A stretch of 64,000 nt of DNA. Source: Patescibacteria group bacterium. Lineage in GTDB: Bacteria > Bacillota > UBA4882 > JAAYXC01. The position numbers were made by a program, and so were the translations under genes. The stretch spans positions 1,544 to 65,543 of the forward strand of contig JBLNBS010000042.1 in assembly GCA_050260175.1 (NCBI GenBank). Reading direction: 5' to 3'. Of this stretch, positions 4,817-61,893 are shown piece by piece. A model generated the notes under the pieces. The model saw only the letters and a list, made by a program, of their open reading frames with translations, was not told where the DNA came from and searched no databases. The first letter of the stretch is position 1. The number at the start of each line of letters is the position of its first letter.

Positions 4817-4902
4817 GGGAACAAAAGGGTAATAATCGCGCGCGGCGTACAAGGATGCGCCGAAGCCGCCTCTCTGCGGGATAATCTGTTTTTCACACCC
4901 CG

Positions 4903-5943
4903 CTAGGGGAGGGGATTCTTTGGCGTCAGCTCGCCGCGCAGATTTTCCCCGACCAGCCGCCGCACCTCGGCCGGGGAGTAGCCTTTTTTGAAGAGGTAAA
5001 AGAGCTTGGTCAGCGCGGCCTCGGCGGTCATGTCCAGGCCGCTGACCACGCCCGCCTCCAGGAGCACGCGGCCGGTGGCGTAAATCTCCAGGTTCGCGGA
5101 GCCGTAGAGGGGCTGGGGCACGTCCACGATGACCACGCCGCGGTCGGCGGCGGCGCGCAGCGCCTCGAGAAAGGGCTTGTTCCGATCGGGCGCGTTGCCC
5201 GCGCCGTAGCACTCCAGCACTATCCCCTGGACCGGTGGCGCCAGGATGTTCTCGAGGTACTCCGCCTTGAGCCCGGGAAAGAGCCTGATGGCCGCGATCG
5301 TGGCCTCGCCCATCTCGACCACTGCCGGCGCGCCGCTCATGGCGGGCGGGGGAGGCACCAGACCCCAGTTGATGACGATATTGATCCCCGCCGTGCCCAC
5401 GGGAGGGAACTTGGGCGAGGCGAAGGCGGCGAAGCCGCCCGCGTCGATCTTGGTGGCGCGGGTGCCGCGCAGGAGCTGGTTGGCGAAGTAGAGGTAGACT
5501 CCGGGCAGGCGGGCGTGGAACTGATCCAGGATCAAAAGAGAGGTCAGGAGGTTTTCCTCCGCGTCGTTGCGCGTCTCCTCCAGCGGCAACTGGGCGCCGG
5601 TCAGGATGACGGGCTTGCCCAGCCCCTCCAGCATAAAGGAGAGGGCCGCGGCGGTAAAGGCCATGGTGTCCGTGCCGTGCAGGACAAGAAACCCGTCATA
5701 ATCGCGGTAATAAGCCTGGATGATCCGGGCGATCCGCACCCAGTCCTCCGGGGTCATATTGGCGCTGTCGAGCAGGGGCTCACACTCGCGGATCTCGTAG
5801 TCGGGCAGATCGGCGGCGTGAAACCGCGGATTGCGCGCGAGCAGATCCGGCAGGCAGCCCGGCACCGGCCGGTAGCCCTGGGGCGTCCGCTTCATGCCGA
5901 TGGTGCCGCCGGTGTAAGCGATTAGAATCCGGGCTCGGGGCAT
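4903..5943 (-). CDS. ansA: L-asparaginase, type I
   Basis: N-terminal ILIAYTGGTIGM threonine-containing active-site motif and full-length similarity to cytoplasmic asparaginases. Confidence 0.85.
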   Translation of the reverse strand: MPRARILIAYTGGTIGMKRTPQGYRPVPGCLPDLLARNPRFHAADLPDYEIRECEPLLDSANMTPEDWVRIARIIQAYYRDYDGFLVLHGTDTMAFTAAALSFMLEGLGKPVILTGAQLPLEETRNDAEENLLTSLLILDQFHARLPGVYLYFANQLLRGTRATKIDAGGFAAFASPKFPPVGTAGINIVINWGLVPPPPAMSGAPAVVEMGEATIAAIRLFPGLKAEYLENILAPPVQGIVLECYGAGNAPDRNKPFLEALRAAADRGVVIVDVPQPLYGSANLEIYATGRVLLEAGVVSGLDMTAEAALTKLFYLFKKGYSPAEVRRLVGENLRGELTPKNPLP

Positions 5944-6050
5944 AATCTCCCTTCCTCGCAGGGGGATTCATTCTTTCCATAGTAGTTTGACAGGGAGGCG
6001 CAACGGTATATAAGGGGAATGGCTTAACTGGATTTGCCCATGTCTTCCTC

Positions 6051-6824
6051 CTATTCCCCCAGCCGGTCGCAGTAAACATGCATCGCCTCCCGCAGGAACG
6101 CGGCCAGGCCCGGTTTGACCTTGTCGATGTTCTCGGTGAAGCGGTGGTCGTTCACATACAAATCCCCGAGGCCGCGGAAGATCTCCGGCGTGCATGCGTA
6201 AAAACTATTTGTGATGTGTTCCCGCCACTCCGTCACCGCGGCCTGGACCTCCGGGTCCGCCGGCCCGCGCTCCATCGCGTCGGCGATGCGCCGGTAGATC
6301 TCGTTGCCCCGGGCGAGGATGGCCGCCCAGTCCTCCTTGGTGTACCTGGCGGTCTTGCGCTCGCACTCCGCCACGACCTTTGGATCGTACTTTTGCCGGA
6401 CCTCGTCGGCATATTTCGCTTGATGTTTCTCGATCTCCGCCATGTCAAAGCCCTCGAACATCTCTTTCTTTTCCATGCTGCGCCCCTCCTCCATCGCTTT
6501 CAGGGTCCTGTCCACGGTCCGGATGATCTCCTCGAGCCGCCTTTTCTTCTCCGTGAGCAGCTCCCTGTGGGCCCGCAAGGCGCGTCCCCGGTCAAAGTCC
6601 GGCCGGTCGAGGATCCCCCGGATTTCCTCGAGGTTGAAGCCGATCTCACGAAAGAAGAGGATCTGCTGCAGCCTCTGGAGGTCGCGGTCGGAGTACTGCC
6701 GGTACCCGGACGGGGTCACGGCCTCGGGCTTCAAGAGCCCGATCCGGTCGTAATGGTGCAGCGCGCGTACGCTGATCCCCGCCATGCCGGCCACTTCCTT
6801 TACCCAGTACGGCAATTCCGCCAC
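6051..6824 (-). CDS. MerR-family transcriptional regulator with TipAS/Mta-like effector domain
   Basis: N-terminal MerR HTH (GISVRALHHYDRIGLL), coiled-coil linker and a C-terminal TipAS-like domain. Confidence 0.8.
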   Translation of the reverse strand: MAELPYWVKEVAGMAGISVRALHHYDRIGLLKPEAVTPSGYRQYSDRDLQRLQQILFFREIGFNLEEIRGILDRPDFDRGRALRAHRELLTEKKRRLEEIIRTVDRTLKAMEEGRSMEKKEMFEGFDMAEIEKHQAKYADEVRQKYDPKVVAECERKTARYTKEDWAAILARGNEIYRRIADAMERGPADPEVQAAVTEWREHITNSFYACTPEIFRGLGDLYVNDHRFTENIDKVKPGLAAFLREAMHVYCDRLGE

Positions 6825-14020: not shown

Positions 14021-15391
14021 GTGGCCTGGGCACGGAAGGATACCTGGCGCAAGGAAGCCGCACTCGTCGAGCAGGTTCTCGAGGCGGCACCGCCCATAGA
14101 CCGCCATCTCCGCATCGGGAGGGAGGAATTCGAGGCGCGCCGGCGCAAGGTCGTCGCGGCGCTGGCCCGGCGGGGGCTGGACGCGGGCGTGGTGTATTGC
14201 GACGCGCATTACAACGGCGACGTGCCCTACCTCGGCGGCAACACCAACATCACCATCGAACCCGTGGCCGGTGTGGTCGGTCCCGGTGGATTCCACATCC
14301 TGGCCGGCCTCGAGGGCGGCTACGTGGTCGAGCAGCTTGCCAAGAGGTCCGGCGCGATCGTGCACAAGGTCGAGATGCTCAAACTCGCGGACGAGAACTA
14401 TCCCATCGAGGCTGAGCGGGTGGAGGACGTCATCGCCGCGGCGGCCGGCGGGCGCCCGTCGCGCATTGGCCTTCTTACCCCGCGGCAGGTGCTGCCGGCC
14501 AGTTTCTATCAGTTCCTGGCCGGCTATACGGGCTCTCCGGACGGCGCCGGGGTCATCGACGTCCAGGAGGATTACTACCGTATCAAATACCTCAAGTCAG
14601 ACGCGGAGATGCGCCTCATCGGCGAGGCCAGCAAGATCGCTGACGTGATGATCCGGGCCATGCTGGCGGTGCTCAAACCCGACATGCTCGAGACGGAGGT
14701 CGCCGCCTGGGGGTGTCTCGTGGCCAAGGAACTGGGCGCGGAGGAGATGGGCTGGGATGTGATGGTCACGGCCAACACGGCCAACCGCACCCTGATCGGC
14801 AAGGCGCTCAACCGGCCCATCAACCGGGGCGACATGGTGCATATCGGCGTCGCGCCCAAGTGCGACGGCCTCAATTCCTGCGAGCGCGTCTCCGTGGCCG
14901 CGGTGGCCGATCCCGCGGAGGTCACGCCCGCGCAGCGTTACTGGTTGGATTTCGTGGGCCGGGCCTTCGAGGCGGGCCTCGCGGCCTACCGCCGGGTGGC
15001 GGCCGAAAATCTCCCCGCCAGGCTGCAGGAGCAGGCACTGGTGGACTACTTTGCCGCCAGATCGGCCGAGGTCTCGGCCCGTGTGGGCCGCCCGGTGGAC
15101 ATGACCAGGCAAAAGCCGTATACGGGCACGCACAACGGCGGCTACACCGAGTGCCAGGAGTTCTACGGCGCCATCACGCTCGATTCGGAGGAGCCGCTCG
15201 GCGGGCAGATCGTCACCATGCTCGACGTGGCCGTGCGCGGGGTGGGCGACAGTTTTGACGACGTGATCATCCCGGATCTGGACTACGTCGTGGTCGAAAA
15301 GACCCTGGGCAAATACGGCCCCAGGGTGGAGGTGCTCAACAAGCTACCCGTGGACGTGCAGCACCTGGTGGGGCACGCCGGCGGGGTGTGA
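14021..15391 (+). CDS. creatinase/prolidase-like M24 family peptidase (paralog 1)
   Basis: Creatinase_N-like plus M24 'pita-bread' domains. About 65% identical to the paralog at 26056..27411. GTG at 14021 (RBS GGGGAGG) aligns with the N-terminus of paralog 2; ORF track gives 13913. Confidence 0.65.
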   Translation: MAWARKDTWRKEAALVEQVLEAAPPIDRHLRIGREEFEARRRKVVAALARRGLDAGVVYCDAHYNGDVPYLGGNTNITIEPVAGVVGPGGFHILAGLEGGYVVEQLAKRSGAIVHKVEMLKLADENYPIEAERVEDVIAAAAGGRPSRIGLLTPRQVLPASFYQFLAGYTGSPDGAGVIDVQEDYYRIKYLKSDAEMRLIGEASKIADVMIRAMLAVLKPDMLETEVAAWGCLVAKELGAEEMGWDVMVTANTANRTLIGKALNRPINRGDMVHIGVAPKCDGLNSCERVSVAAVADPAEVTPAQRYWLDFVGRAFEAGLAAYRRVAAENLPARLQEQALVDYFAARSAEVSARVGRPVDMTRQKPYTGTHNGGYTECQEFYGAITLDSEEPLGGQIVTMLDVAVRGVGDSFDDVIIPDLDYVVVEKTLGKYGPRVEVLNKLPVDVQHLVGHAGGV

Positions 15392-26055: not shown

Positions 26056-27411
26056 ATGTGGACACGGAACGTCCAATGGCGGCGTGAAGCCGACCTCGTG
26101 GCAAAGGTGCTCGAAAGGGCACCAGCGGTGGATCCGAAGAAATCTCTCGGGCTGGAGGAGTTCCGTGAGCGGCAGCGGAGGGTAATCGAGGCCATCCGTT
26201 CCGCCGGGTTGGATGCGGCGGTCGTATACTCGGACGAGCTTTACGATGGGGACGTCCCCTATCTGGCGGGGAACACCAATATCAGCATCGAGCCCGTCGC
26301 CGCCGTTATCGGCCCGAACGGGCTGCACGTCTTGGCCGGTTTGGAAGGCGGTTACGTGGTGGAACAACTGGCGGGCCGGTCGGGCGCAAAGGTTCACAAG
26401 GTCGAAATGCTAAAGCTGGCGGATGAGAACTACCCGATCAAGGCAGAGCGCGTCGAGGATGTCATTGAAGAAGCCGCCGGCAAGAAGCCCCTGAGAATAG
26501 GTCTCCTGACCCCGCGGCAGGTCCTGCCGGTCTCAATCCACGAGTTCCTCGCCTCTTATGTGGGTGATGCCGGGGAAATCGTCGACGCTCAGGAACTCTA
26601 TTATCGCATCAAATATGAAAAATCCGATCTGGAGATGGACCTCCTGGCGGACGCGGGCAAGATTGCCGACACAATGATGCGCGGGATGCTCGCGGTGCTC
26701 AAGCCCGGCATCCTCGAGACCCAGGTCGCGCAGTGGGGGTACGCCATCGCCCGGGAGATGGGCGCTGAAGAGATGGGTTTTGATGTCATGGTTACGGCCA
26801 ACGAGGCGAACAGAACCCTGATCGGTAAGGCGTTGAACCGCACGATTCACGAGGGCGACTGGGTTCACCTCGGCGTCGCCCCAAAGCGGGACGGGCTTAC
26901 CTCCTGCGTCCGGAGTTCGGTGGTGGCGGTGCCCGAACCAGGCGCGATGACGGCGGATCAGCGGTATTGGCTTAGCTTCGTGGAAGAAGCTTTTGAAGTT
27001 GGATTGTCCGCCTATCGCCGGGTTGCCGCCGAGGGTCTACCGGCCAAGCTCCAGGAAGAAGCATTGGTTGAATACTTCCGCTCCCGGTCCGACGAGGTGG
27101 GGAAGCGGATAGGCCGTCCGATCCGGCTGGAGGATCAAAAGCCTTATACCGGCACCCATAACGCCGGCTATACGGAATGCCAGGAGTTCTTCGGAGCCAT
27201 TACGCTCGATTCCGAGGAGCCCCTGGGCCGCCAAATCGTGACTATGCTCGATGTGGCGATCCGCGGGATCGGGGATGGTTGGCACGACGTGGTCATTCCC
27301 GGCCTGGACTACGTGGTCGTCGAGCGAACGCTCGGCAAATATGGCAGGGAGGTTCGGCTGCTCACCGAACTGCCCGTCAAGGTACAGGGCCTGGTGGGTA
27401 AGATCGAATGA
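26056..27411 (+). CDS. creatinase/prolidase-like M24 family peptidase (paralog 2)
   Basis: Collinear similarity to 14021..15391 (e.g. VVYSDELYDGDVPYLAGNTNISIEPVA vs VVYCDAHYNGDVPYLGGNTNITIEPVA). Confidence 0.65.
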   Translation: MWTRNVQWRREADLVAKVLERAPAVDPKKSLGLEEFRERQRRVIEAIRSAGLDAAVVYSDELYDGDVPYLAGNTNISIEPVAAVIGPNGLHVLAGLEGGYVVEQLAGRSGAKVHKVEMLKLADENYPIKAERVEDVIEEAAGKKPLRIGLLTPRQVLPVSIHEFLASYVGDAGEIVDAQELYYRIKYEKSDLEMDLLADAGKIADTMMRGMLAVLKPGILETQVAQWGYAIAREMGAEEMGFDVMVTANEANRTLIGKALNRTIHEGDWVHLGVAPKRDGLTSCVRSSVVAVPEPGAMTADQRYWLSFVEEAFEVGLSAYRRVAAEGLPAKLQEEALVEYFRSRSDEVGKRIGRPIRLEDQKPYTGTHNAGYTECQEFFGAITLDSEEPLGRQIVTMLDVAIRGIGDGWHDVVIPGLDYVVVERTLGKYGREVRLLTELPVKVQGLVGKIE

Positions 27412-37384: not shown

Positions 37385-37750
37385 TTTGCTTTTGATCCCC
37401 TTCCCAAACGACAGGAATGACATCGATCATTTTAACACATGCCCCGGACCGGCGCAAGGGCAAGACGGATCGCGGTTCGCCGCCGGGTCATGAAGGAAAA
37501 TGCCTCCTGCGCCACGAAGTCTCCCCGTCATCAAGCCGATAAATTATGCAGTGCGGATCGGTGAGGATCCAATCAGGGCGTCTAGCTCTGCCCACGATGG
37601 GCATAAAGCGAGCGACGTACATGGATGTACCAAAGCAGCTCAGCCGGGATTTCACGTACCACCAAAAAAGCAGGAATAATACCGTGATCCGAGAATAGTA
37701 ATGTGGTCTTCCCCGGTGGAGAAAAACTACCTCCCACAGGGGTGAATGGA

Positions 37751-41405: not shown

Positions 41406-41894
41406 ATGGGTAACGAGCTGGCCATCTGCCCCGGGAGCTTCGATCCCGTGACCTTGGGGCATCTCGACATCATCGAACGCATGGCGGCCATCTTTTCCCG
41501 TGCCATCGTGGCGGTCCTGGACAACCCGGCCAAGGCACCGCTTTTTTCCACGCTCGAGCGGTGCACCCTCCTGCGCAAGGCCACCAGCCACCTGGCCAAC
41601 GTGGAGGTCAAGCACTTCGACGGCCTTTTGGTAGAATTCGCCCGCGCCGAAGGAGCCAGGGTGATCGTGCGGGGCCTGCGGGCATTGGCCGACTTCGAGG
41701 CCGAGTTCCAGATGGCGCTCACCAACAAACACCTGGCGCCCGAGATCGAGACCGTCTTTATGGTGACCAGGCCGGAGTTTTCCTTTTTGAGCTCGAGCGG
41801 TGTCAAGGAGATCGTCCGTTTTGGGGGCAATGTCACGGGCCTGGTCACGCCGGCCGTGGAGGAGGCCCTCCTGGCCAAACGCGACCTGCTTTAG
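41406..41894 (+). CDS. coaD: phosphopantetheine adenylyltransferase
   Basis: [18 protein letters not shown] contains the HxGH nucleotidyltransferase motif. Confidence 0.85.
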
Positions 41895-42110
41895 ACCGTT
41901 TTGACAGGATTAACATGATTTTTAGATTTACACGGATTCTTGTCTATCTATTAGATTGTCTTTGTTAATGAAGTTGGGCCTAGAATCCTGTTAATCCCGT
42001 TAATCATGTAAATCATGTGATATCATTCCCTGTTTTACATGATTAAAACCATTTTGACAGGATTAACATGTCTATCGGTTTAAGACGGTTTTATACGCCG
42101 CTCTGGCGAG

Positions 42111-45963: not shown

Positions 45964-46169
45964 CCTTCCTTCGCTGAGGCCAGGGAGGGTTATTGAACCT
46001 GACCCCCGGCGGCGATATGTTGATTACAGGGCTTTCGAAAGGTCTTTCAGGTGTAGCCCCGGGATTCATCTCCTACCCACGATGGGTAAAAGACTGCGAC
46101 GACCAAGGATGGTCCAAAGCAGCTCCCCGGGTTTAAAGAACGGGTTTTTCACACCGTTTTTAGATGTTG

Positions 46170-46198
46170 CGGCAGGCTATTAGCCTGCCGTGTTTTTC
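46170..46198 (+). terminator. rho-independent terminator
   Basis: GCGGCAGGC-TATTA-GCCTGCCG followed by TGTTTTT. Confidence 0.75.
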
Positions 46199-46402
46199 CA
46201 AGCATGGTCCGGACATACTTACCCAACCCTCCCCATGCTCCGGTCAAGTAATGATGAATTGAGAATTTAATTCTTTATTTTTCATTCTACATTCATCATT
46301 ATTTATCGCCGCAAGGCGTCCCCGCCCATCTCCTGCCATCTCTCCTCCCGCATACCCGCACCTCCCGCCGGCCATCCTAAGCCGGAAAGGTGGCGGGTTG
46401 CC

Positions 46403-52836: not shown

Positions 52837-53088
52837 GTGGTATACACGCGTCTGTCAAGCAAGGGACAGGTCGTGATCCCGGGAAGCATACGATCGGCGC
52901 ATGGCTGGGGTGCCGGGACGGAGCTTGTGGTCGAGGATCGCGGGGATGCAGTCATCCTCCGCGTGGCCCGGCCTTTTCCGCCGACCAGGGTTGACGAGGT
53001 CTGGGGTTGCACGGGTTACGGCGGTCCAAAGCGGACCCTGAAGGAGATGCGGTCGGCCATCGTCAAAGGAGCCCGCGAACGGCGATGA
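52837..53088 (+). CDS. vapB: AbrB/MazE-family antitoxin VapB
   Basis: VVYTRLSSKGQVVIPGSIR swapped-hairpin DNA-binding motif. GTG 52837 after GGGAGGGGAAAAG (ORF track gives ATG 52822). Confidence 0.75.
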   Translation: MVYTRLSSKGQVVIPGSIRSAHGWGAGTELVVEDRGDAVILRVARPFPPTRVDEVWGCTGYGGPKRTLKEMRSAIVKGARERR

Positions 53089-53477
53089 CAGCCGTGGATA
53101 CCAATGTGCTGGTCCGGTTGCTCACCGACGATGACCCGTCCCAGGCGGAACGCGCCGCCCGCCTGTTCCAGGACGGGTCCGTATTTATCGCCAAGACCGT
53201 GCTTTTGGAGACCGAGTGGGTGCTCCGTCATGCCTACGGCTTGAGCCGGGATGTATGCAACGCGGCTTTTGTCAAACTCTTGGGCCTGCCCGGTGTGAGC
53301 GTGGAGGACATGCCTGCGGCCGGTAAGGCCATGGCGTGGTACGCGGCGGGTTTGGATTTCGCCGACGCGCTCCACCTGGCCGCGGCTGGCGGCGCCGAAC
53401 GCTTCGTGACTTTCGACCGGGATTTCGTCAAACGGGCCGCAAAAGTCTCGGCCGATGTGGAAGTGCGGTTGGTATGA
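53085..53477 (+). CDS. vapC: PIN-domain toxin VapC
   Basis: MTAVDTNVLVRLLTDDD N-terminal PIN acidic motif. ATGA start/stop overlap with vapB. Confidence 0.8.
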   Translation: MTAVDTNVLVRLLTDDDPSQAERAARLFQDGSVFIAKTVLLETEWVLRHAYGLSRDVCNAAFVKLLGLPGVSVEDMPAAGKAMAWYAAGLDFADALHLAAAGGAERFVTFDRDFVKRAAKVSADVEVRLV

Positions 53478-53551
53478 TTGATGGACGTGCTCGCGTCCGG
53501 GCCTTCCTCCCTATCCTCCGGAGGGGGCATCTGTTGCGACAAAATCCGGGT

Positions 53552-53935
53552 TTAATTCATCATTCTACATTCATCATTCATCATTGCTCTTAGCAGCAGT
53601 CTCATCCCATCCAAAAAAGCCCTCTCCCCGAGCATCGCCGTCTCCAGGTAATGCGCCGATCCCAGGGCCTCGCTGTATTGGAGGAGCATCCTTTGGCCCT
53701 CCTCGGGCAGCATCTCCCGCAATTGCGCGTAGAGGCGGGAGGCCTTTTCCTGCTGCACATGGTACTCCTTCGGCGCTTGGCTCGTATCAACTCGGTCCAA
53801 GCGGGAGCAGATGAATTCCCTGAGATCGACCATGAAGTCGTCGTCGAAATAGGAACGGTCGCGGGCGAGGAGGGGGGAACGGGATGCGGGGGAAACCGGT
53901 AATTGGTAGAGCACGGTGATCGCGCCCTCTCTCAT
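53552..53935 (-). CDS. hypothetical protein
   Basis: 127-aa ORF with balanced composition. Its 3' end overlaps AT-rich repeat copy 2. Confidence 0.35.
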   Translation of the reverse strand: MREGAITVLYQLPVSPASRSPLLARDRSYFDDDFMVDLREFICSRLDRVDTSQAPKEYHVQQEKASRLYAQLREMLPEEGQRMLLQYSEALGSAHYLETAMLGERAFLDGMRLLLRAMMNDECRMMN

Positions 53936-54017
53936 GTTATTGCTTGGGTGTCTTTAGGTCAATTATAATCAATAAGTTATTGAATGTCAATAGATATACC
54001 CAACCCGTATTGACCCG

Positions 54018-54026
54018 TGGTATAAT
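54018..54026 (+). promoter_or_regulatory. extended -10 promoter element (TGgTATAAT)
   Basis: TGGTATAAT about 22 nt upstream of the RHH gene TTG start. Confidence 0.45.
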
Positions 54027-54047
54027 GCCAGCGGAGGGGGATGGCAG

Positions 54048-54221
54048 TTGGCGGTAGGAGCGGGGAAGAGGAACCAGACCGTGGTGCTGGACAAGGAGGT
54101 ATATGAGGTCGTCAACAATCTGGCCTGGGAGCAGCGGAGGAGCTTTAGCAACATGACCAACATGCTTTTGCGAGAGGTCCTGCAGGCGCGGGGCTTACTG
54201 GCAAAGGACTCTCAAAAATAA
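54048..54221 (+). CDS. ribbon-helix-helix (CopG-like) protein, putative orphan antitoxin/regulator
   Basis: TTG start after GGAGGGGGA. The translation LAVGAGKRNQTVVLDKEVYEVVNNLAWEQRRSFSNMTNMLLREVLQARGLL fits an RHH beta-strand plus two helices. 57 codons, so it fell below the ORF-track threshold. Confidence 0.5.
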   Translation: MAVGAGKRNQTVVLDKEVYEVVNNLAWEQRRSFSNMTNMLLREVLQARGLLAKDSQK

Positions 54222-54966
54222 CAGAGCCCATCTCGAGGATATTTTTTGTACTAACCAGCGAGGAAGTCTTGGTCACGTTACTCATTCTGCATTCTTCATT
54301 TATCATTGCCTTCATCCCGTGAACCGTTTGGCCAGGGAGCATCTTGAGTCCCGCGGCCTTTTGCGCAAGTGGGAACCGAGATCGTAAGCAAATGAGGCCA
54401 ATCGCTTCCAGCCACTCTTTATGTAAGAGAGCGGTGGTATCTCAACGCCAGGATGAGCGGCTGACTCGCGATCCGCCGACTCGTGACCAGCTTTTTTTCG
54501 GGCCGTCATTCTTTGACGGTCTCGTTTGTTACTCTTGACATATGGCGGGAGATTGGCAGGAATCGGGGAGCGGGTGGGCGAATTTTTGGATAGTGATGGC
54601 AATCACATTGGGGCGCCTGAGGCAGCGGTTTCCGTGGCTGGTGAATGTCCGGATGCGAGTGGTGGTGGAATAACGCCTACCGAGGACGCATTGATCGCGT
54701 TGCGCCGTATTCCGGCAGTTAATACTGATGATATTGAGTATTTAGCGAACCCAGCTCTACGCATGACCGATGGTCAAGTAATGGGTGAAGGTCATTTGCA
54801 CATAATACTAAAGACATAGGGTTTCATTCCTCTTCAAAATAGTTGGATAAAGTAAATAGGAAGAAGGTCGGCGGGTTCTGAAGAGGGTTTTAGCATATGT
54901 GGCGAAAATTTAAATACAGTTTATCTTTATCATGTAGAGTATAATCACTGAAGGCGAGGATGACCT

Positions 54967-56826
54967 TTGACCAATCAGCAGATAGGTCAATTTTTCCAAA
55001 CAACGAATGTCAATATCATGGATAATGCTTTTCTCCGTGAACCTCAGATCGGTGGCTATCAGGCAGCATGTGAGCATTTCTCCCGTAGCCGGGCGCATGC
55101 TATTTTGCAGATCCCTGTCGGTTGTGGTAAGACTGGGCTTATGAGTATTTTACCATTTGGTATGGCCGAAGGTCGTGTACTCATAATCGTCCCGAACCTA
55201 GAAATTCGCCGGGGGGTGGCGCATGAACTCGATATCACAAACAATCAATGTTTCTGGAATAAGGCCCATGTTCTTCGCGACTACTCTACTGGTCCCTATC
55301 GTGCAGAGCTCGATAGCGACGCCAATATTCATGATTGTCGAAGAGCGCATTTTGTAATCACAAATATCCACCAATTGGCAAATCGTGTTGACCGATGGTT
55401 GCCAAAATTTGAGGATAACTTTTTTGACCTTATCTTGGTTGACGAAGCTCACCATAATGCTGCAGAAAGTTGGCAACGTGTATTCGAAAGATTTCCTAAT
55501 GCCAAGGTCATAAGTTTAACCGCCACTCCCTTCCGTTCTGATGGACGTCCGGTTGAAGGACAATCAATTTACCGATATTCTTTCGCAGAAGCTATGCGTA
55601 ATGGATATATTAAGCAACTTCGTGTGGCTGATGCGCAACCTGCACAGATATATTTTACTTTTCAAGGTGATGAATATCACCACTCTCTTGAAGAAGTCCT
55701 TGCTCTTCGCGAAGAAGCGTGGTTCCGACTGGGGATTGCACTTTCTCGACCGACAAATGAGACAATTGTAAATTCGAGTCTGGAGTTACTTGATCGGTTA
55801 CGTTCAGCTGGTCGTCATCATCAGATCGTTGCAGCTGCATGTAGTATTAACCATGCACGTGATATAGCCTCTTTATATCGAGAACGTAATTACTCAGCAG
55901 ATGTGATATCTAGTGATATGCGTTCAGAGGAACGGGAGTCGGTTCTTCAACGCCTTAAGTGTAATCAACTCGATTGCATCGTTCAGGTAAACATTCTTGG
56001 TGAAGGATTCGATTGGCCTCAACTTAGCGTTGCGGCTATCTTTCGCCCTTTCCGTAGTCTTGCACCATATATCCAATTCGTCGGCCGAATCATGCGCGTC
56101 CTTGAGCAAAACGACCCATATCATCCAGATAACGAAGGTTGGGTGATTTCGCATATTGGTCTTCAACAGGATGAACGGTGGGAAGATTTCCAACGCTTTG
56201 ATGAGGATGACCAGGAACTCTTCCGGAACATAGCACATGGAAATGATCCTGGTCCGCGTGAAGGAAATGGTTCAGAGCGTCGACGCTTAAAACCAGATAT
56301 GCGGGTTATCAATGAAGTCCTTGATCGCCTTGTAACTCGGGATTTTCTTGATCCTACGGATGCCGGTGCGGTCGATGCCGTCTTAGCAGAAATGCGTCGT
56401 ACGTTAGGTGTAGAACCAGAAGAGATCGGGCTTTCGCGTGAAGAGCTAGCCGGCCGCCTTCTTCAAGCTCGTAGACGCGAGCAAGTCCACCCAAGACCTC
56501 GGCCAGTCCAACCTCAAGACCGTCGCCGTGAGCAACAGCGTCGCCTTGATGAAGCGGCTCGATCTGTAGCCGGTCGGATTCTTGAAGTCTTAGGTCTATC
56601 ACCTTCCGGTGTAGATATTATTAGGCGAATGCCTGAGCTTGCATCAGCCCATAACAACATCGGAGCGGCAATCCGCCTTATGCACCGTAAAGTGAACGAG
56701 AGTATGGGTTTCCAACCAGGCCATCGTCGTGAGCTTGATATTCCAGAACTAGAGCAAGCTCTAGAACATCTTGATGAATATGGGGATGTTTTAGAGGCGG
56801 AACTTCGTCATCAGCTAGGGAGGTAA
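54967..56826 (+). CDS. SF2 DEAH-box helicase (ResIII-type helicase core plus C-terminal helicase domain)
   Basis: Q-motif QIGGYQAACEHF, Walker A VGCGKTG, DEAH box LVDEAHH, motif III SLTATP. AT-rich codon usage. Confidence 0.75.
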   Translation: MTNQQIGQFFQTTNVNIMDNAFLREPQIGGYQAACEHFSRSRAHAILQIPVGCGKTGLMSILPFGMAEGRVLIIVPNLEIRRGVAHELDITNNQCFWNKAHVLRDYSTGPYRAELDSDANIHDCRRAHFVITNIHQLANRVDRWLPKFEDNFFDLILVDEAHHNAAESWQRVFERFPNAKVISLTATPFRSDGRPVEGQSIYRYSFAEAMRNGYIKQLRVADAQPAQIYFTFQGDEYHHSLEEVLALREEAWFRLGIALSRPTNETIVNSSLELLDRLRSAGRHHQIVAAACSINHARDIASLYRERNYSADVISSDMRSEERESVLQRLKCNQLDCIVQVNILGEGFDWPQLSVAAIFRPFRSLAPYIQFVGRIMRVLEQNDPYHPDNEGWVISHIGLQQDERWEDFQRFDEDDQELFRNIAHGNDPGPREGNGSERRRLKPDMRVINEVLDRLVTRDFLDPTDAGAVDAVLAEMRRTLGVEPEEIGLSREELAGRLLQARRREQVHPRPRPVQPQDRRREQQRRLDEAARSVAGRILEVLGLSPSGVDIIRRMPELASAHNNIGAAIRLMHRKVNESMGFQPGHRRELDIPELEQALEHLDEYGDVLEAELRHQLGR

Positions 56827-56830
56827 TTAC

Positions 56831-57085
56831 ATGTCCAGAGGACGTATAAAGAGCATTCTACATACCGCACATATTAGTCAAGCAAGTTTACGAGGGCGAC
56901 ATCGTATTTGCCGTGGAGATAGTAAAAATCATATTATTCCCTTTGGTGGTTGGTACCTTGGCATAAAGGACGGGTTGGAAGAAAAGAGTTACTGTTTAAA
57001 ATGTGCTCGTGCCATCTTGGAAAAAGGACAAATGAAGCTTGATATTCTTATTAAAAATCTCGAAAAAGCTGAACGTAATGCTTAG
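56831..57085 (+). CDS. small zinc-ribbon protein
   Basis: 84 aa with CRGD...CLKC cysteine pairs, 4 nt after the helicase stop. Confidence 0.4.
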   Translation: MSRGRIKSILHTAHISQASLRGRHRICRGDSKNHIIPFGGWYLGIKDGLEEKSYCLKCARAILEKGQMKLDILIKNLEKAERNA

Positions 57086-57191
57086 TAGATTATCAAAATC
57101 TCCAGTTCAATCGATTATTATAACTTTTATTGATATAGGAGATAAAGTACTGCTGGGTTTTGTATGTATCGGAAAGGAGTATTGATGGAAT

Positions 57192-59135
57192 ATGAGTCAA
57201 CAATTGCATCTCTTTCCTGATAGCTCTTTTTCATTTGGTCCGCGCTTTTTGCACGATCACGCAGGCCGCATCATTACTGATCCTCGTATTGCACTTGTTG
57301 AACTTGTTGCAAACTCGTATGATGCTGGTGCTTCACTCATTAAAATTCAATGGCCGGATAACATAGGTGGTATATTTCAAGTTGAAGATAACGGTACAGG
57401 AATGACAATGGATGAATTCAATAAAAGATGGAGGACGCTTTCGTATAGTCGAGTACTAGAACAGGGACCTTATGTTGAATATCCACCTGATGTAAAAGGA
57501 ACGAAACGGATAGCGTTTGGCCAAAATGGAAAAGGAAGATATAGTCCTTTTTGCTTTGCTGATGCATATGAGGTGGAGACCTGGAAAAACGGGAATAGTA
57601 TTGTGGCAAGGGTTGAACTCACTCAAGGTGGTATTGAACCATTTCACTGCGAAATCATAACTGAAGGAACTAGAAAAGGACATGGAACATGCATACGTGC
57701 AGCTATTGATCGTAATCAAATTTCAGTCGCTAGTGTATCTGAAGCAATAGGCTCCAAGTTTTTAGTTGATCCATTCTTTTCTGTTTTTATTAATGAAATT
57801 AAACTTGAACTTTTTTCGCTATCAGGCATCGCAAGTACTTCACTGCAATTGGATCCGTATGGTACTGTAGTAATTCATCAGATTGATGCACAAATGCAAG
57901 ACAGAACAATGTTCTTACGAGGAATTACATGGTGGGTTAACAAGCGAATGGTAGGTATCTCACCATCATGGGATGGATTAGATGGGCGTGGTGCAATTTT
58001 GGACGGGCGGACAGCACTTGCCAAGCGCTGTAGTTTCATTGTGGAAGTAGATTTTCTGAAAGAAGACGTAAAAGATGATTGGACTGGATTTCGTGACACG
58101 CCACGTGTCTTAGCAGTACGTGACACGGTCCGTAACTATGTGATTGAAGCACTCAATAAGCTCCTTGCAGAAAATCGAAGAGAGCGAAAACTTGAAGCAT
58201 TGGCTCAGAACAGAGAAGTCCTTGGCCGTCTTCCTACATTATCAAAACGTTTAGTTGGTCAATTTATTGATGAAGTTCAACAAAGTTGTCCCACCTTATC
58301 CCAAGGTGACTTAGAACGGGCAGTTACGATTTTTACAAAGATGGAAGCAGCTCGGAGTGGCTATGAACTCCTCGAAAAATTAGCCGCTTGTTCCCCAGAT
58401 GATTTGGATACATGGAATAAACTCATGGAAGAATGGACAGCAAGCAATGCAGAGATCATTCTTAGTGAATTAAAACGGCGTCTTGATCTTATTCAGCGTA
58501 TGCAACAACTCGTTAATGTCGCAACAACCGATGAACTTCATGAACTACAACCATTATTTGCCCGTGGTTTATGGATCTTTGGACCAGAATACGAATCAGT
58601 AGAATTTACCTCCAATCGAGCGATGGCAACAATCATCAATAATTATCTTGGGGGTACTTCAAATTCACTTTCCAATCGCCGACCAGATATAGTAGCTCTA
58701 CCTGACAGATCGATTTGTTGCTATACAGCAGATAAATTTGATGATAATGGTGAAGTGGATGGAATTAGAAAGGTTCTCATTGTCGAACTGAAAAAAGGTG
58801 GATTTATACTACGAACTACTGAGCTTCGCCAAGGTGAAGACTACGCTCAAGAATTACAAAAAGCTAATCTTGTAACAAAGAGCACAGAGATTATCGTATA
58901 TGTTTTGGGAGCTCGGTTGTCTGACGACGCAACCGAAGAACGTACAATTGGATCATCAATAAAGATTATACCCATGACCTATGATACAATATTGAAACGT
59001 GCGCACGCTCGGACGTTTAACTTACAGCGAAAATTACAGATTATCGAACCTGCTCCTACACATGATAGAGATGTTGAAGATATCATATCAGTACCTTTAT
59101 TTAAAAGTGTAACGATTGATAAAGCTATGACATAA
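57192..59135 (+). CDS. GHKL (HATPase_c, MORC/MutL-like) ATPase domain protein with uncharacterised C-terminal half
   Basis: Bergerat-fold motifs ELVANSYDAGAS (N-box) and VEDNGTGMTMDEF (G1 box) within the first 120 aa. Confidence 0.65.
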   Translation: MSQQLHLFPDSSFSFGPRFLHDHAGRIITDPRIALVELVANSYDAGASLIKIQWPDNIGGIFQVEDNGTGMTMDEFNKRWRTLSYSRVLEQGPYVEYPPDVKGTKRIAFGQNGKGRYSPFCFADAYEVETWKNGNSIVARVELTQGGIEPFHCEIITEGTRKGHGTCIRAAIDRNQISVASVSEAIGSKFLVDPFFSVFINEIKLELFSLSGIASTSLQLDPYGTVVIHQIDAQMQDRTMFLRGITWWVNKRMVGISPSWDGLDGRGAILDGRTALAKRCSFIVEVDFLKEDVKDDWTGFRDTPRVLAVRDTVRNYVIEALNKLLAENRRERKLEALAQNREVLGRLPTLSKRLVGQFIDEVQQSCPTLSQGDLERAVTIFTKMEAARSGYELLEKLAACSPDDLDTWNKLMEEWTASNAEIILSELKRRLDLIQRMQQLVNVATTDELHELQPLFARGLWIFGPEYESVEFTSNRAMATIINNYLGGTSNSLSNRRPDIVALPDRSICCYTADKFDDNGEVDGIRKVLIVELKKGGFILRTTELRQGEDYAQELQKANLVTKSTEIIVYVLGARLSDDATEERTIGSSIKIIPMTYDTILKRAHARTFNLQRKLQIIEPAPTHDRDVEDIISVPLFKSVTIDKAMT

Positions 59136-59253
59136 GTTTAAATAACGAACACTTTTTTTGATAATTAAGTAGATTATTCAAATTCTTGGCAGGATGTTCC
59201 CTCTAGGTGGCAAATTCTTGGCCCTATTCCCCAAAGACAGGAGATGCCGTTCC

Positions 59254-61893
59254 ATGCCTCCCAAACGCCGCCAGGATACGACCGCCGAGGCCTACGATCA
59301 CAAAGACCAGGAGGCCCTCCTCCGCCCGGACGTCGGCCTCCAAGCCCAGTTCAAGAAGAAGAAACTTCCGGTGAAGTACCGCTACGACCCTTCGCTCGAT
59401 CCAGAATTAAGCTGGGACATCAATGCCGATCGGGAGCGGGCCGAAGTCCTGATCGAGCAGATACGCACGGCCAGCACGCTTGAGGAGGCCAAGGCCGCCG
59501 CTGAGCAGCTCAAGCGAATGTCCCAGCCCTTCCTCAACTGGGCCGGTAAAGCCGAGCGGTCCGAATTCACCGTGCCCACGCTGCCGCTCTTTGTCCATGA
59601 GCGGCTCTCGACCAAGGCTATTCTGGAATCCGTCCGCACCAGGAAACGCATGATCGGTCTTTTTGCCGATCCCGAGCTGGCTATCGCCGATCGTGCGCTA
59701 AAGGCCTACGAGCACAAGACCGGCTGGGTCAACCGCCTCATTCTGGGCGACAGTCTTGTCGTCATGAATAGCCTCTTGCAGTATGAGGGTCTCGGCGGCC
59801 AGGTCCAGATGATCTATATGGACCCGCCGTATGGCGTAAAATTTGGGTCGAACTTCCAGCCATTCATTCGCCGGCGCGACGTCAAACACAACGATGACGA
59901 GGATATGACCCGGGAGCCGGAGATGGTGCAGGCGTATAGGGATACTTGGGAGCTTGGGCTACATTCATATCTTACGTATCTGCGTGACCGTTTGTGGCTT
60001 TGCCGTGAACTATTATCGCCAACAGGTTCAATATTCATCCAAATCAGTGACGATAACTTGCATATGATCCGTTGCTTGATGGATGAGGTTTTTGGTGCAG
60101 GTAATTATCTTAACACAATTGCCTTTGTAAAAACGAGTGGTGTTACCACTAAATTTTTACCTAGTCGGATTGACTTTTTAGTTTGGTATGCTCGAAATAA
60201 AGAGTATTCAAAATATCATCAAATTTACGTTACAAAATCAACAGAGATGGGTACAGCAGAAAACTACAACTGGATCGAGTTACCTGATGGTACAAGACGT
60301 GGTTTGACCGCAGCAGAAAGACGTGACCGAACTTTAGTTCCAAACAATGCAAAGATTTATAAACCAGATAACATAACTAGTCAGGGTAATCCAATTTTTG
60401 ACTTTGAATATCAGGGAAATGTTTATCGTCAGGCATGGAAAACAACCCCCGAAGGACTAAGAAGGCTTGCATCTGCAATGCGCCTACATGTAGCAAAAAA
60501 TTCACTGCAATATGTCAGGTATCTTACAGATTTTCCGTGTGTCCCAGCAACACAGCTTTGGGAAGATACTGGCACTGGTAGTTTCACTGATGATAAGATT
60601 TATGTAGTACAAACAGGGACAAAAGCCATTGAGCGGTGCATCCTCATGAGCACCGATCCCGGTGACCTCGTCCTCGACCCCACCTGCGGTAGCGGCACGA
60701 CGGCCTACGTTGCGGAGCAGTGGGGCCGGCGGTGGATCACCATCGACACGAGCCGCGTGCCGATCGCCCTGGCCAAGCAGAGGTTGTTGACCGCGACCTA
60801 CGACTATTACGAGCTGCGGGATGAGAAGGCCGGAGTCGCGGGCGGGTTCAAATACGAGCGTAAGCAGAACAAGAAAGGCGAGGAAATAGGCGGCATTGTG
60901 CCGCATATCACCCTAAAAAGCATCGCCAACAACGAGCCGCCGGAGGAAGAGGTCCTGGTGGACCGGCCCAACATCGTACCGGGCGTGGTGCGGGTGACCG
61001 GGCCCTTCGTTGTTGAGGCGACCATCCCGACACCGGTGGATATCGATGCCGACGGCGTCGAGGATTCCGGCGTCCCGGCCGGTGACCACTACCAGCGGAT
61101 GTTGGAGGTGCTGCGGCGTTCGCCCGTGCTGCGGTTGCCGGGCAACCGAACCGTCACATTCAAGAACGTCCGCCAGCCCGCGAAATCGCTCAACCTGCAC
61201 GCCGAGGCGATAATCGAGGGAAACGGCGAAAAGCCGGTGGCCTTCCTCTTTGGCCCCGAGAGCGGCGCGGTCAGTGAAAAGATGATCTATGAGGCGGCGC
61301 GCGAGGCCCATGGCAAGAGCTATGCCCATCTCTACATCATCGGCTTTGCCTGCCAGGATGCGGCTACCCGCTTGATCCGCGAATGTGAAAGCGTGATGGG
61401 TATCCCGGCCACTTTTGTCGCGGCCACCATGGACCTCGCCATGCACGACCTGCTCAAGACGAGCCGCGCTAGCCAGGTTTTTAGCGTCACGGGCGCGCCC
61501 GAGATCAAACTGCTCAAGCTCAAGCAAAAGGGGGCCAACGGCGAGGATCTCTATCAGGTCAAGCTGTTGGGCCTGGACGTCTTTGATCCCGTCACCATGG
61601 AGACCGATCACCTCCAGGGCGACGACGTTCCCGCGTGGTTCCTCGACACGGACTACAATGAGCTGTCCTTCCTGGTCGGCCAGGCGTTCTTTCCGCGCAC
61701 CTCTGCGTGGGACAGCCTCAAGCGGGAATTGAAGGGCGTTTACCTCGACAGCGTCTGGGAGCACCTGGCCGGCGATACGAGCGAGCCCTTTACCGCGGGC
61801 GACAACGGCAAGATCGCCGTCAAGGTCATCGACGAGCGGGGCAACGAACTGATGGTGGTCAAGCCCCTGGCCGAGGCGGAGGTGGAGGCATGA
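59254..61893 (+). CDS. mod: type III restriction-modification Mod subunit (beta-class N6-adenine/N4-cytosine DNA methyltransferase)
   Basis: Motif IV IYMDPPYG (around 59815) precedes motif I DPTCGSGTT (around 60680), with a variable middle region between them. ATG 59254 after AGGAG. The stop overlaps the res start. Confidence 0.8.
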   Translation: MPPKRRQDTTAEAYDHKDQEALLRPDVGLQAQFKKKKLPVKYRYDPSLDPELSWDINADRERAEVLIEQIRTASTLEEAKAAAEQLKRMSQPFLNWAGKAERSEFTVPTLPLFVHERLSTKAILESVRTRKRMIGLFADPELAIADRALKAYEHKTGWVNRLILGDSLVVMNSLLQYEGLGGQVQMIYMDPPYGVKFGSNFQPFIRRRDVKHNDDEDMTREPEMVQAYRDTWELGLHSYLTYLRDRLWLCRELLSPTGSIFIQISDDNLHMIRCLMDEVFGAGNYLNTIAFVKTSGVTTKFLPSRIDFLVWYARNKEYSKYHQIYVTKSTEMGTAENYNWIELPDGTRRGLTAAERRDRTLVPNNAKIYKPDNITSQGNPIFDFEYQGNVYRQAWKTTPEGLRRLASAMRLHVAKNSLQYVRYLTDFPCVPATQLWEDTGTGSFTDDKIYVVQTGTKAIERCILMSTDPGDLVLDPTCGSGTTAYVAEQWGRRWITIDTSRVPIALAKQRLLTATYDYYELRDEKAGVAGGFKYERKQNKKGEEIGGIVPHITLKSIANNEPPEEEVLVDRPNIVPGVVRVTGPFVVEATIPTPVDIDADGVEDSGVPAGDHYQRMLEVLRRSPVLRLPGNRTVTFKNVRQPAKSLNLHAEAIIEGNGEKPVAFLFGPESGAVSEKMIYEAAREAHGKSYAHLYIIGFACQDAATRLIRECESVMGIPATFVAATMDLAMHDLLKTSRASQVFSVTGAPEIKLLKLKQKGANGEDLYQVKLLGLDVFDPVTMETDHLQGDDVPAWFLDTDYNELSFLVGQAFFPRTSAWDSLKRELKGVYLDSVWEHLAGDTSEPFTAGDNGKIAVKVIDERGNELMVVKPLAEAEVEA

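Follow-up and report, generated by a model that had tools for sequence, protein, structure and literature searches.

A probable mosaic interspersed repeat family with a conserved branched fold in a Limnochordia-like bacterial lineage

The gap between rpmB and asp23 in the 64-kb stretch of DNA analysed here (the window) holds a folded element, copy A, which a sequence-only reading had taken for the 5′ leader of asp23-fakA. That role is not borne out: the element is missing from the orthologous site in six relatives, and its other copies stand beside unrelated genes. As far as sequence comparison can tell, the element is a dispersed repeat and not a conserved regulatory leader of asp23. Copy A is probably a member of a new, lineage-restricted, mosaic interspersed repeat family, MITE/ERIC/BOX-like in type, whose fold is under selection. 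Two copies that differ by compensatory changes need not signify a regulatory leader; here a dispersed, insertion-like repeat carries that signature. It represents an undescribed family, with no Rfam, viral, plasmid or phage match and a single match in 185,579 species genomes.

Copy A folds into a branched structure

Copy A sits between rpmB (minus strand, L28 ORF) and the Asp23 ORF, and its sequence and coordinates (37561-37670) are as first quoted. In single-sequence MFE prediction the complete fold spans 37561-37655 on the plus strand and is closed by a stem in which GUGAG-g-AUCC (37561-37570) pairs with GGAU-UUCAC (37647-37655). Within this stem, hairpin P2 (37589-37603, plus strand; UGCCCA-CGA-UGGGCA) has six pairs and an invariant CGA triloop. 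Stem P3, formed on the same strand by 37607-37613 with 37635-37640, contains one bulge, one A.A mismatch and the internal loop GAC/CAAA, and bears the terminal hairpin GUACA-UGGA-UGUAC (37617-37630, plus strand), which was obtained from pair counts and RNAalifold. Model R1, which has A among its building sequences, scores the core at 37586-37643 with 73.6 bits.

The likely start of asp23, derived from orthologues of 124-130 aa, falls at 37739-37748, ~85-95 nt 3′ of the end of the fold (37655) and on the same strand, in agreement with the earlier figure of ~90 nt. The earlier view that the element does not encode protein also stands: the frames of A and B, the second copy, differ by a 1-nt indel, and the stop lies in a different frame in each copy. 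A small-protein reading was rejected, as A and B lie in different frames with stops. ARAGORN found neither tRNA nor tmRNA in the window, and a tRNA-like reading was therefore dropped.

Full and truncated copies in two genomes

The blocks reported to be shared by A and B are indeed shared. Across the whole window, CCCACGATGGG occurs exactly at 37591 and 46076 only, and CCAAAGCAGCTC exactly at 37630 and 46114 only, with ~0.4 chance matches expected for the latter when up to one mismatch is allowed. An nhmmer search of ~0.3 Mb recovered B from A at E=1.4e-5 and A from B at E=4.5e-5. An unsupervised repeat search placed 4835-4871, 37605-37641 and 46089-46125 in one family, D10, and so brought in a third site.

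Copy B is a full unit of ~140 nt (46026-46166, plus strand), made up of a 5′ module ACAGGGCTTTCGAAAG..., a fold at 46050-46155 and the tail GGGTTTTTCACACCGTTTTTAGATG. It lies 3′ of an ispH/S1-domain gene pair, with DUF1614/spoIIP also as neighbours, and scores 78.1 bits with model R1 at 46070-46127 (B, too, is among the building sequences). An intrinsic-terminator-like hairpin with a U tract follows B directly (46168-46192, plus strand). Copy C (4828-4905, plus strand) is 5′-truncated and lacks the first hairpin; it was found by nhmmer at E=0.016-0.078, as a member of D10 and as a local R1 match at 4842-4866. It retains the GGA hairpin GGCGUA-CAAGGA-UGCGCC (4844-4861, plus strand) and the tail TGTTTTTCACACC (4887-4899, plus strand), and lies between convergent genes, one of which encodes an asparaginase.

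The nearest genome is the bin GCA_050260415.1, whose FakA is 80% identical to that of the window; both organisms are present in run SRR24035586. This sister bin holds two asparaginase contigs, L026 and L027, which are 90% and 79% identical to the window, and it may therefore be composite or mix two populations. Its contig L005 carries a full copy, L005R (6244-6356). B and L005R are 92% identical over 131 nt (L005 6223-6353), a value that can be read neither as strong constraint nor as recent transfer because the bin looks composite. The identity begins exactly at ACAGGGCT and stops at CACACCG, and the flanks are unrelated. L005R lies upstream of a D-Ala-D-Ala carboxypeptidase (dac) gene, and the window contains no homologue of any gene beside it. 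A diverged partial partner, L005L (L005 6081-6215, minus strand), faces it head to head, with a GUACA-GGA-UGUAC hairpin and the tail GGTTTTTCACACCGTTTTTAGATG, both in common with the family. Stem-loops read from the sequence also follow L005R, with a U-rich tail, and L005L, with a poor U tract.

A fourth full core, copy D, lies in the lysA-dapA interval of the sister-bin contig L029 (18468-18566, minus strand) and is antisense to the two genes. Scored with a covariance model from which it had been left out, D reaches 49.8 bits at E ~6e-10, where the short calibration leaves E-values rough. G+C-rich hairpins flank D on the minus strand: CCCCUCUC-UAAGCUUG-GAGAGGGG upstream (L029 18560-18660) and CUCUGACCC-UUCC-CGGGUCUGAG downstream (L029 18440-18485). 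Finally, L010, a locus from a relative, ends in a tail-only copy (14841-14863, minus strand), a 23-nt exact match beyond which the contig stops after ~40 nt. The tail GGTTTTTCACACC... is common to the partial copies.

Searches for further copies, as the first reading had advised, yielded L005R and D as full copies and C, L005L and the L010 tail as partial ones, and the family comprises at least four full and three partial copies (~143 kb of two genomes searched). With filters off, model R1 finds two cores in the 64-kb window (A and B), and two in 79 kb of the sister bin (L005R and D); 86 kb of sequence from more distantly related genomes yielded none.

A full unit measures ~95-140 nt and can be assembled from up to three modules, with subsets differing by copy. 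The 5′ module is ACAGGGCT..., and the 3′ tail module is GGGTTTTTCACACCG...; the core is a closing stem round a junction from which the CGA-triloop hairpin and a second stem, with the GAC/CAAA internal loop and an (A/U)GGA cap, emerge.

Compensatory changes preserve the fold

The two compensatory pairs first noted between GTACA-TGGA-TGTAC in A and GACCA-AGGA-TGGTC in B are real, and a third is found in the first hairpin (UGCCCA/UGGGCA versus UACCCA/UGGGUA). The covariation is genuine and spans three helices and the closing stem. In the four full cores (A, B, L005R and D) the fold comprises 17 base pairs, and 97% of the 68 cells are standard pairs; 8 of the 17 pairs are changed on both sides. 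None of 500 shuffles reached any of the five measures applied, and pairing was destroyed in all controls in which the partners were slid by 1-3 columns. P2 contributes six pairs round the invariant CGA triloop, three of them changed on both sides among the four copies by pair counts. P3 contributes six pairs, with an internal loop GA(C/A) / CA(A/G)A, and the terminal hairpin on P3 five, with an (A/U)GGA or GGA loop. RNAalifold alone predicts the same helices on the four cores, and every full copy folded singly adopts the same architecture within the closing stem. Junction nucleotides are invariant across the full cores alongside the CGA and (A/U)GGA loops.

The outer closing stem varies in sequence. 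Next to GUGAG-g-AUCC/GGAU-UUCAC in A, MFE prediction gives GUCGCG...AUCCA/UGGAU...CGCGAC in D and GGUGU/ACACC in L005R. For B it yields the inner stem only, AGCCC (46055-59) with GGGUU (46129-33); the complementarity of GGUGU (46050-54) and ACACC (46151-55) in B was seen by eye, and the equivalent stem is an MFE result in L005R only. That the closing stem covaries points to a fold under selection, as opposed to a DNA sequence bound by protein. In stability A (z-score −1.4) and B (−1.9) do not exceed shuffled sequence by much; the z-scores of D and L005R are −2.7 and −3.7. The CCCACGAUGGG strand seems to be the folding one, since it is the strand with G.U pairs, namely in the first hairpin of D, the hairpin of C and the closing stems of A and B.

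The covariation had been read as the signature of a functional RNA as opposed to a simple DNA repeat. The conserved fold holds; the contrast does not, since a dispersed repeat here keeps its fold. It is conceivable, though we rate it as unlikely, that the element is a functional RNA selected by the host, either a small RNA gene family or a protein-binding cis module, with a CsrA-type site as its most concrete form. The strong covariation, the invariant CGA and (A/U)GGA loops and junction nucleotides, and the G.U pairs that point to one folding strand all agree with such an RNA, as does the arrangement of A, B and L005R, which are co-oriented with the downstream gene and, in B and L005R, followed by a terminator-like hairpin. 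Against it, the flanks as read contain no promoter-like sequence common to the regions upstream of the copies, and L005R adjoins its inverted partner where a promoter would have to be. D is in antisense to the genes on either side, C has convergent genes round it, and the element is missing at the orthologous sites of the six relatives.

Under the preferred reading as a dispersed repeat, selection would act on the fold of the CCCACGAUGGG strand, so that stems change by compensation and loops stay fixed. The fold may be needed for propagation, one option being that the folded single strand is recognised by a trans-acting enzyme; alternatively, it may provide a stable RNA module once co-transcribed. 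Effects on neighbours, such as RNA stability or processing, termination, or a hybrid promoter at A, would then be by-products and not dedicated control of asp23.

Occupied and empty sites

In L010, L011, L012/L013, L014, L022 and L024 the rpmB/asp23 gap contains a DUF1858 gene (71-96 aa) and no element; nhmmer and model R1 detected no element at this site in any of the six relatives. A search of the window by tblastn with four DUF1858 orthologues returned no remnant of the gene, and a DUF1858 pseudogene at A was rejected on that result. When the gap was compared by eye between the window (37424-37700) and L010 (9074-9593), homology was gone after ~37535 and back at GCAGGAATAA (37670). It follows that A lies within a lineage-specific replacement of the DUF1858 gene, the segment standing in for that gene being 37536-37669 on the plus strand (approximate limits from the same by-eye comparison). 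The ~100 nt beside rpmB (~37425-37535) are still L010-like by eye; they may represent a conserved minus-strand leader of rpmB.

A promoter-like match straddles the right-hand edge of A (37651-37680, plus strand), with a −35-like TTCACG at the 3′ end of A and, 18 nt further on, a −10-like AATAAT in the flank common to L010; this is a consensus match only, one site against 0.6 expected. With DUF1858 and whatever lay before it lost, the two boxes could together serve asp23-fakA as a hybrid promoter.

At the site of B, the S1/DUF1614 gap of L011 measures 130 nt and contains a terminator only, without the element. The site of C has a counterpart in the sister bin. The asparaginase of the window (4903-5943) ends ...TPKNPLP* at a TAG in the C tail, and the plus-strand CTA at 4903-4905 in C is the TAG stop of this convergent gene. 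The L026 orthologue (5410-6462; 90% identical) has no element and is 4 codons longer, and homology between the two genes breaks off at the element edge; the window asparaginase is thus 4 residues short because its TAG is supplied by copy C. Similarly, the TAG of cmk in L010 (14842-14844) falls inside the 23-nt exact tail match. Filled and empty sites are therefore seen between relatives at A, at B and at C (the last against L026), and model R1 found no core in the loci of the remaining relatives. The copies occur in both orientations, with D antisense to lysA/dapA and C between convergent genes, and the neighbouring genes (asp23, DUF1614/spoIIP, dac, lysA/dapA and asparaginase) are functionally unrelated.

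Such a distribution would be expected if the units arrived by insertion or duplication and not by descent with the neighbouring genes. A would have taken the place of the DUF1858 gene, still present at this site in relatives, and C and the copy at the L010 end may have overwritten the last codons of convergent genes and given them TAG stops. The truncated and mosaic copies and the very narrow range of the family agree with a repeat as well. MITE-type repeats are known as long RNA stem-loops, often at gene 3′ ends, that are co-transcribed and fuse with or alter ORF ends (PMC3184786). The repeat described here alters its surroundings in that it replaces the DUF1858 gene, shortens the asparaginase by 4 codons and gives two genes their stop codons. 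It could also serve as a marker of contig breaks and of differences between strains in this uncultured lineage of Limnochordia-like bacteria.

Comparison with mobile repeats

The element is short, non-coding and present in several dispersed copies, with no frame common to A and B, as MITEs are. The family is nevertheless not a textbook MITE: no conserved terminal inverted repeats (TIRs), target duplication or transposase was found in the scope searched. The ends pair, and their sequence differs per copy; a covarying closing stem does not resemble the sequence-conserved TIR to which a transposase binds. Direct repeats do not flank the copies consistently; ATGTTG stands on either side of B and belongs in part to the shared tail. 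Transposase genes were found neither among 20 window ORFs scanned with Pfam (~1/3 of the called ORFs) nor in the gene lists of the fetched loci. Two further points weigh against the repeat reading: three full cores out of four point the same way as the downstream gene, and the terminator-like hairpin after B and L005R would also suit a leader or a small RNA gene.

Among known repeats, ERIC/IRU, RUP, BOX and Correia elements resemble the family in being ~100-150 bp long, non-coding, intergenic and present in both orientations at filled and empty sites, and in forming stable RNA stem-loops at gene 3′ ends or fused to ORF ends (PMC3184786). BOX elements also consist of modules, comparable to the 5′ module, core and tail of this family. 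There is, however, no sequence similarity between these elements and ours, whose host is a Limnochordia-like member of the Bacillota and so belongs to another phylum. Moreover, no conserved TIRs or target duplications were found in our element, which forms a branched junction with invariant loops instead of a simple long hairpin. REP/BIME and REPIN sequences are likewise strand-specific palindromes without TIRs or target duplications, occur as inverted doublets (compare L005L/L005R) and have GTAG before a G+C-rich stem. They are single hairpins of 20-40 nt, in contrast to branched units of 95-140 nt; GTAG is found in three copies of the family only, and no RAYT was seen in the loci examined. 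The three with GTAG before the stem are B, L005R and L005L (GTAGCCCCGGG, GTAGCCCAGGG); A has GUGAG and D has GUCGCG instead.

These likenesses bear on the idea that the fold is the single-stranded DNA recognition structure of an HUH-type element (IS200/IS605 or REP/RAYT-like), the units being non-autonomous, PATE- or REPIN-like derivatives that depend on a Y1 transposase gene located elsewhere. Rather than contradicting the repeat explanation, this would supply a specific mechanism for it. We judge it improbable in this form. It would explain why ends at which no TIRs or target duplications were found are still sharp and strand-specific, as in the stretch from ACAGGGCT to CACACCG shared by B and L005R, why stems covary while loops are fixed, why L005L and L005R form a head-to-head inverted pair like a REP doublet, and why GTAG stands 5′ of the stem in the three copies named. 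It is opposed by the lack of a Y1/RAYT gene in the fetched loci (Pfam lists) and among the 20 window ORFs scanned, and by the lack of a common target sequence on the left side of the copies. Known REPs consist of one hairpin of 20-40 nt, the folds seen here being branched and ~100 nt long; G.U(T) pairs and a three-way junction are commoner in RNA. An integron attC site was rejected as well, as there are no R′′/R′ core sites and copies are scattered in either orientation.

Comparison with regulatory RNAs

The CsrA consensus obtained by SELEX is RUACARGGAUGU, with GGA in a hairpin loop (PMC4347634). All copies of the element have GGA in a short hairpin loop, and A (GUACAUGGAUGU) and C (GUACAAGGAUGC) each match the consensus at 11 of 12 positions, with the invariant ACA and GGA in both, the latter within the loop; B matches at 9 of 12, and B and D have CCA for ACA. 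In presenting GGA this way the terminal hairpin resembles a high-affinity CsrA site. If the functional RNA took this form, the role of the copies would be to recruit a CsrA-like regulator or titrate it, and A would act on the asp23-fakA transcript. There is, however, one clear GGA hairpin site per unit, as opposed to the many in CsrB-type sponges, and we saw no connection with flagellar or carbon-storage genes. The functional spacing of paired CsrA sites is roughly 10-63 nt; at ~115 nt from the ribosome-binding site of asp23, the hairpin of A is too distant for CsrA control of this gene.

Leaders that contain riboswitches or bind ribosomal proteins share with the element a conserved, covarying junction fold, and some copies likewise lie 5′ of genes with a terminator between. 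They differ in that the element is not found at orthologous sites, has unrelated genes downstream, includes antisense and truncated copies and matches no Rfam family. A new riboswitch or self-cleaving ribozyme that regulates or processes the neighbouring transcripts is a highly improbable reading. Its compact junction fold, invariant unpaired nucleotides and covarying stems would suit it, as would the occurrence of several copies, some followed by terminators; small ribozymes do occur dispersed and in both orientations. On the other side, no Rfam model matches even at E up to 10, the hammerhead core CUGANGA is absent from the sequences, and copies lie next to unrelated genes in two sister genomes only, some of them truncated.

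Guanidine-II (mini-ykkC) was rejected, as ACGA occurs in one hairpin only, where its closing pair makes the CGA triloop. A K-turn at the GAC/CAAA internal loop was rejected as well, as the flanking pairs covary as Watson-Crick pairs.

Invariant loops and junction together with freely covarying stems, the closing stem included, are found more typically in functional RNAs than in repeats to which a transposase binds. The core might on this account be a new functional-RNA class that moves as a mobile cassette, either a CsrA-type decoy or recruiter or a small catalytic or ligand-binding RNA, and rewires neighbouring transcripts; we give this idea little credence. If the GGA hairpin did bind CsrA, or if the core were catalytic, the family would be a rare mobile functional RNA module in the Bacillota. 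To our knowledge, no CsrB-type decoy RNA has been established in that phylum.

Database searches and host lineage

The relevant genomes examined amount to ~230 kb. A pattern scan of 185,579 species genomes gave nine matches, eight of which are chance matches in unrelated phyla; L005 is the only real one, with L005R the only true match. All seven matches to a relaxed hairpin-plus-tail pattern in JGI metagenomes were due to chance, viral contigs had no match to tail or core patterns, and blastn of B against plasmids and phages found none. No known Rfam family claims the element: the whole window is without matches at the gathering thresholds, and Rfam 15 at E<=10 around A, B, L005 and D gave chance-level matches to unrelated families only. 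The nearest Rfam family in kind is CsrB, with 7.6 bits against a gathering score of 71.

The window contains sporulation genes, and the nearest cultured FakA is that of Capillibacterium thermochitinicola (58%). On this gene content and FakA relative we treat the organism as an uncultured Limnochordia-like member of the Bacillota. The NCBI labels 'Patescibacteria group bacterium' for the window and 'Bacteroidota bacterium' for the sister clash with the sporulation genes and the Limnochordia-like relatives.

Other features of the window

Three AT-rich segments (46197-46335, 53506-53600 and 54257-54314) have ~20-30% G+C, compared with ~65-70% for the genome, and are interrelated (nhmmer E=4e-4 and 0.025); no copies of them were found in the other fetched loci. 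A 10-nt inverted repeat, AATGATGAAT...ATTCATCATT, lies in the first segment at 46240-46300, and a Logan contig of the same organism begins inside it at ~46235. Another AT-rich intergenic block (41884-42110) follows a CTP_transf_like (coaD-like) gene. It contains a 55-nt direct repeat (41884-41938 and 42037-42091, 75% identical), an internal inverted match, and TTGACA-like and TTTTTAGAT strings.

A defence-like island of lower coding G+C extends over 53007-61893 and encodes a PIN-domain protein (53007-53477), a ResIII/helicase protein (54967-56826), an HATPase_c_3 protein (57192-59135) and an N6_N4 DNA methylase of 899 aa (59194-61893). Elsewhere, 14174-15372 and 26206-27398 are paralogous stretches 12 kb apart with 71-76% DNA identity (repeat families D1 and D2), which are probably duplicated sugar-utilisation genes.
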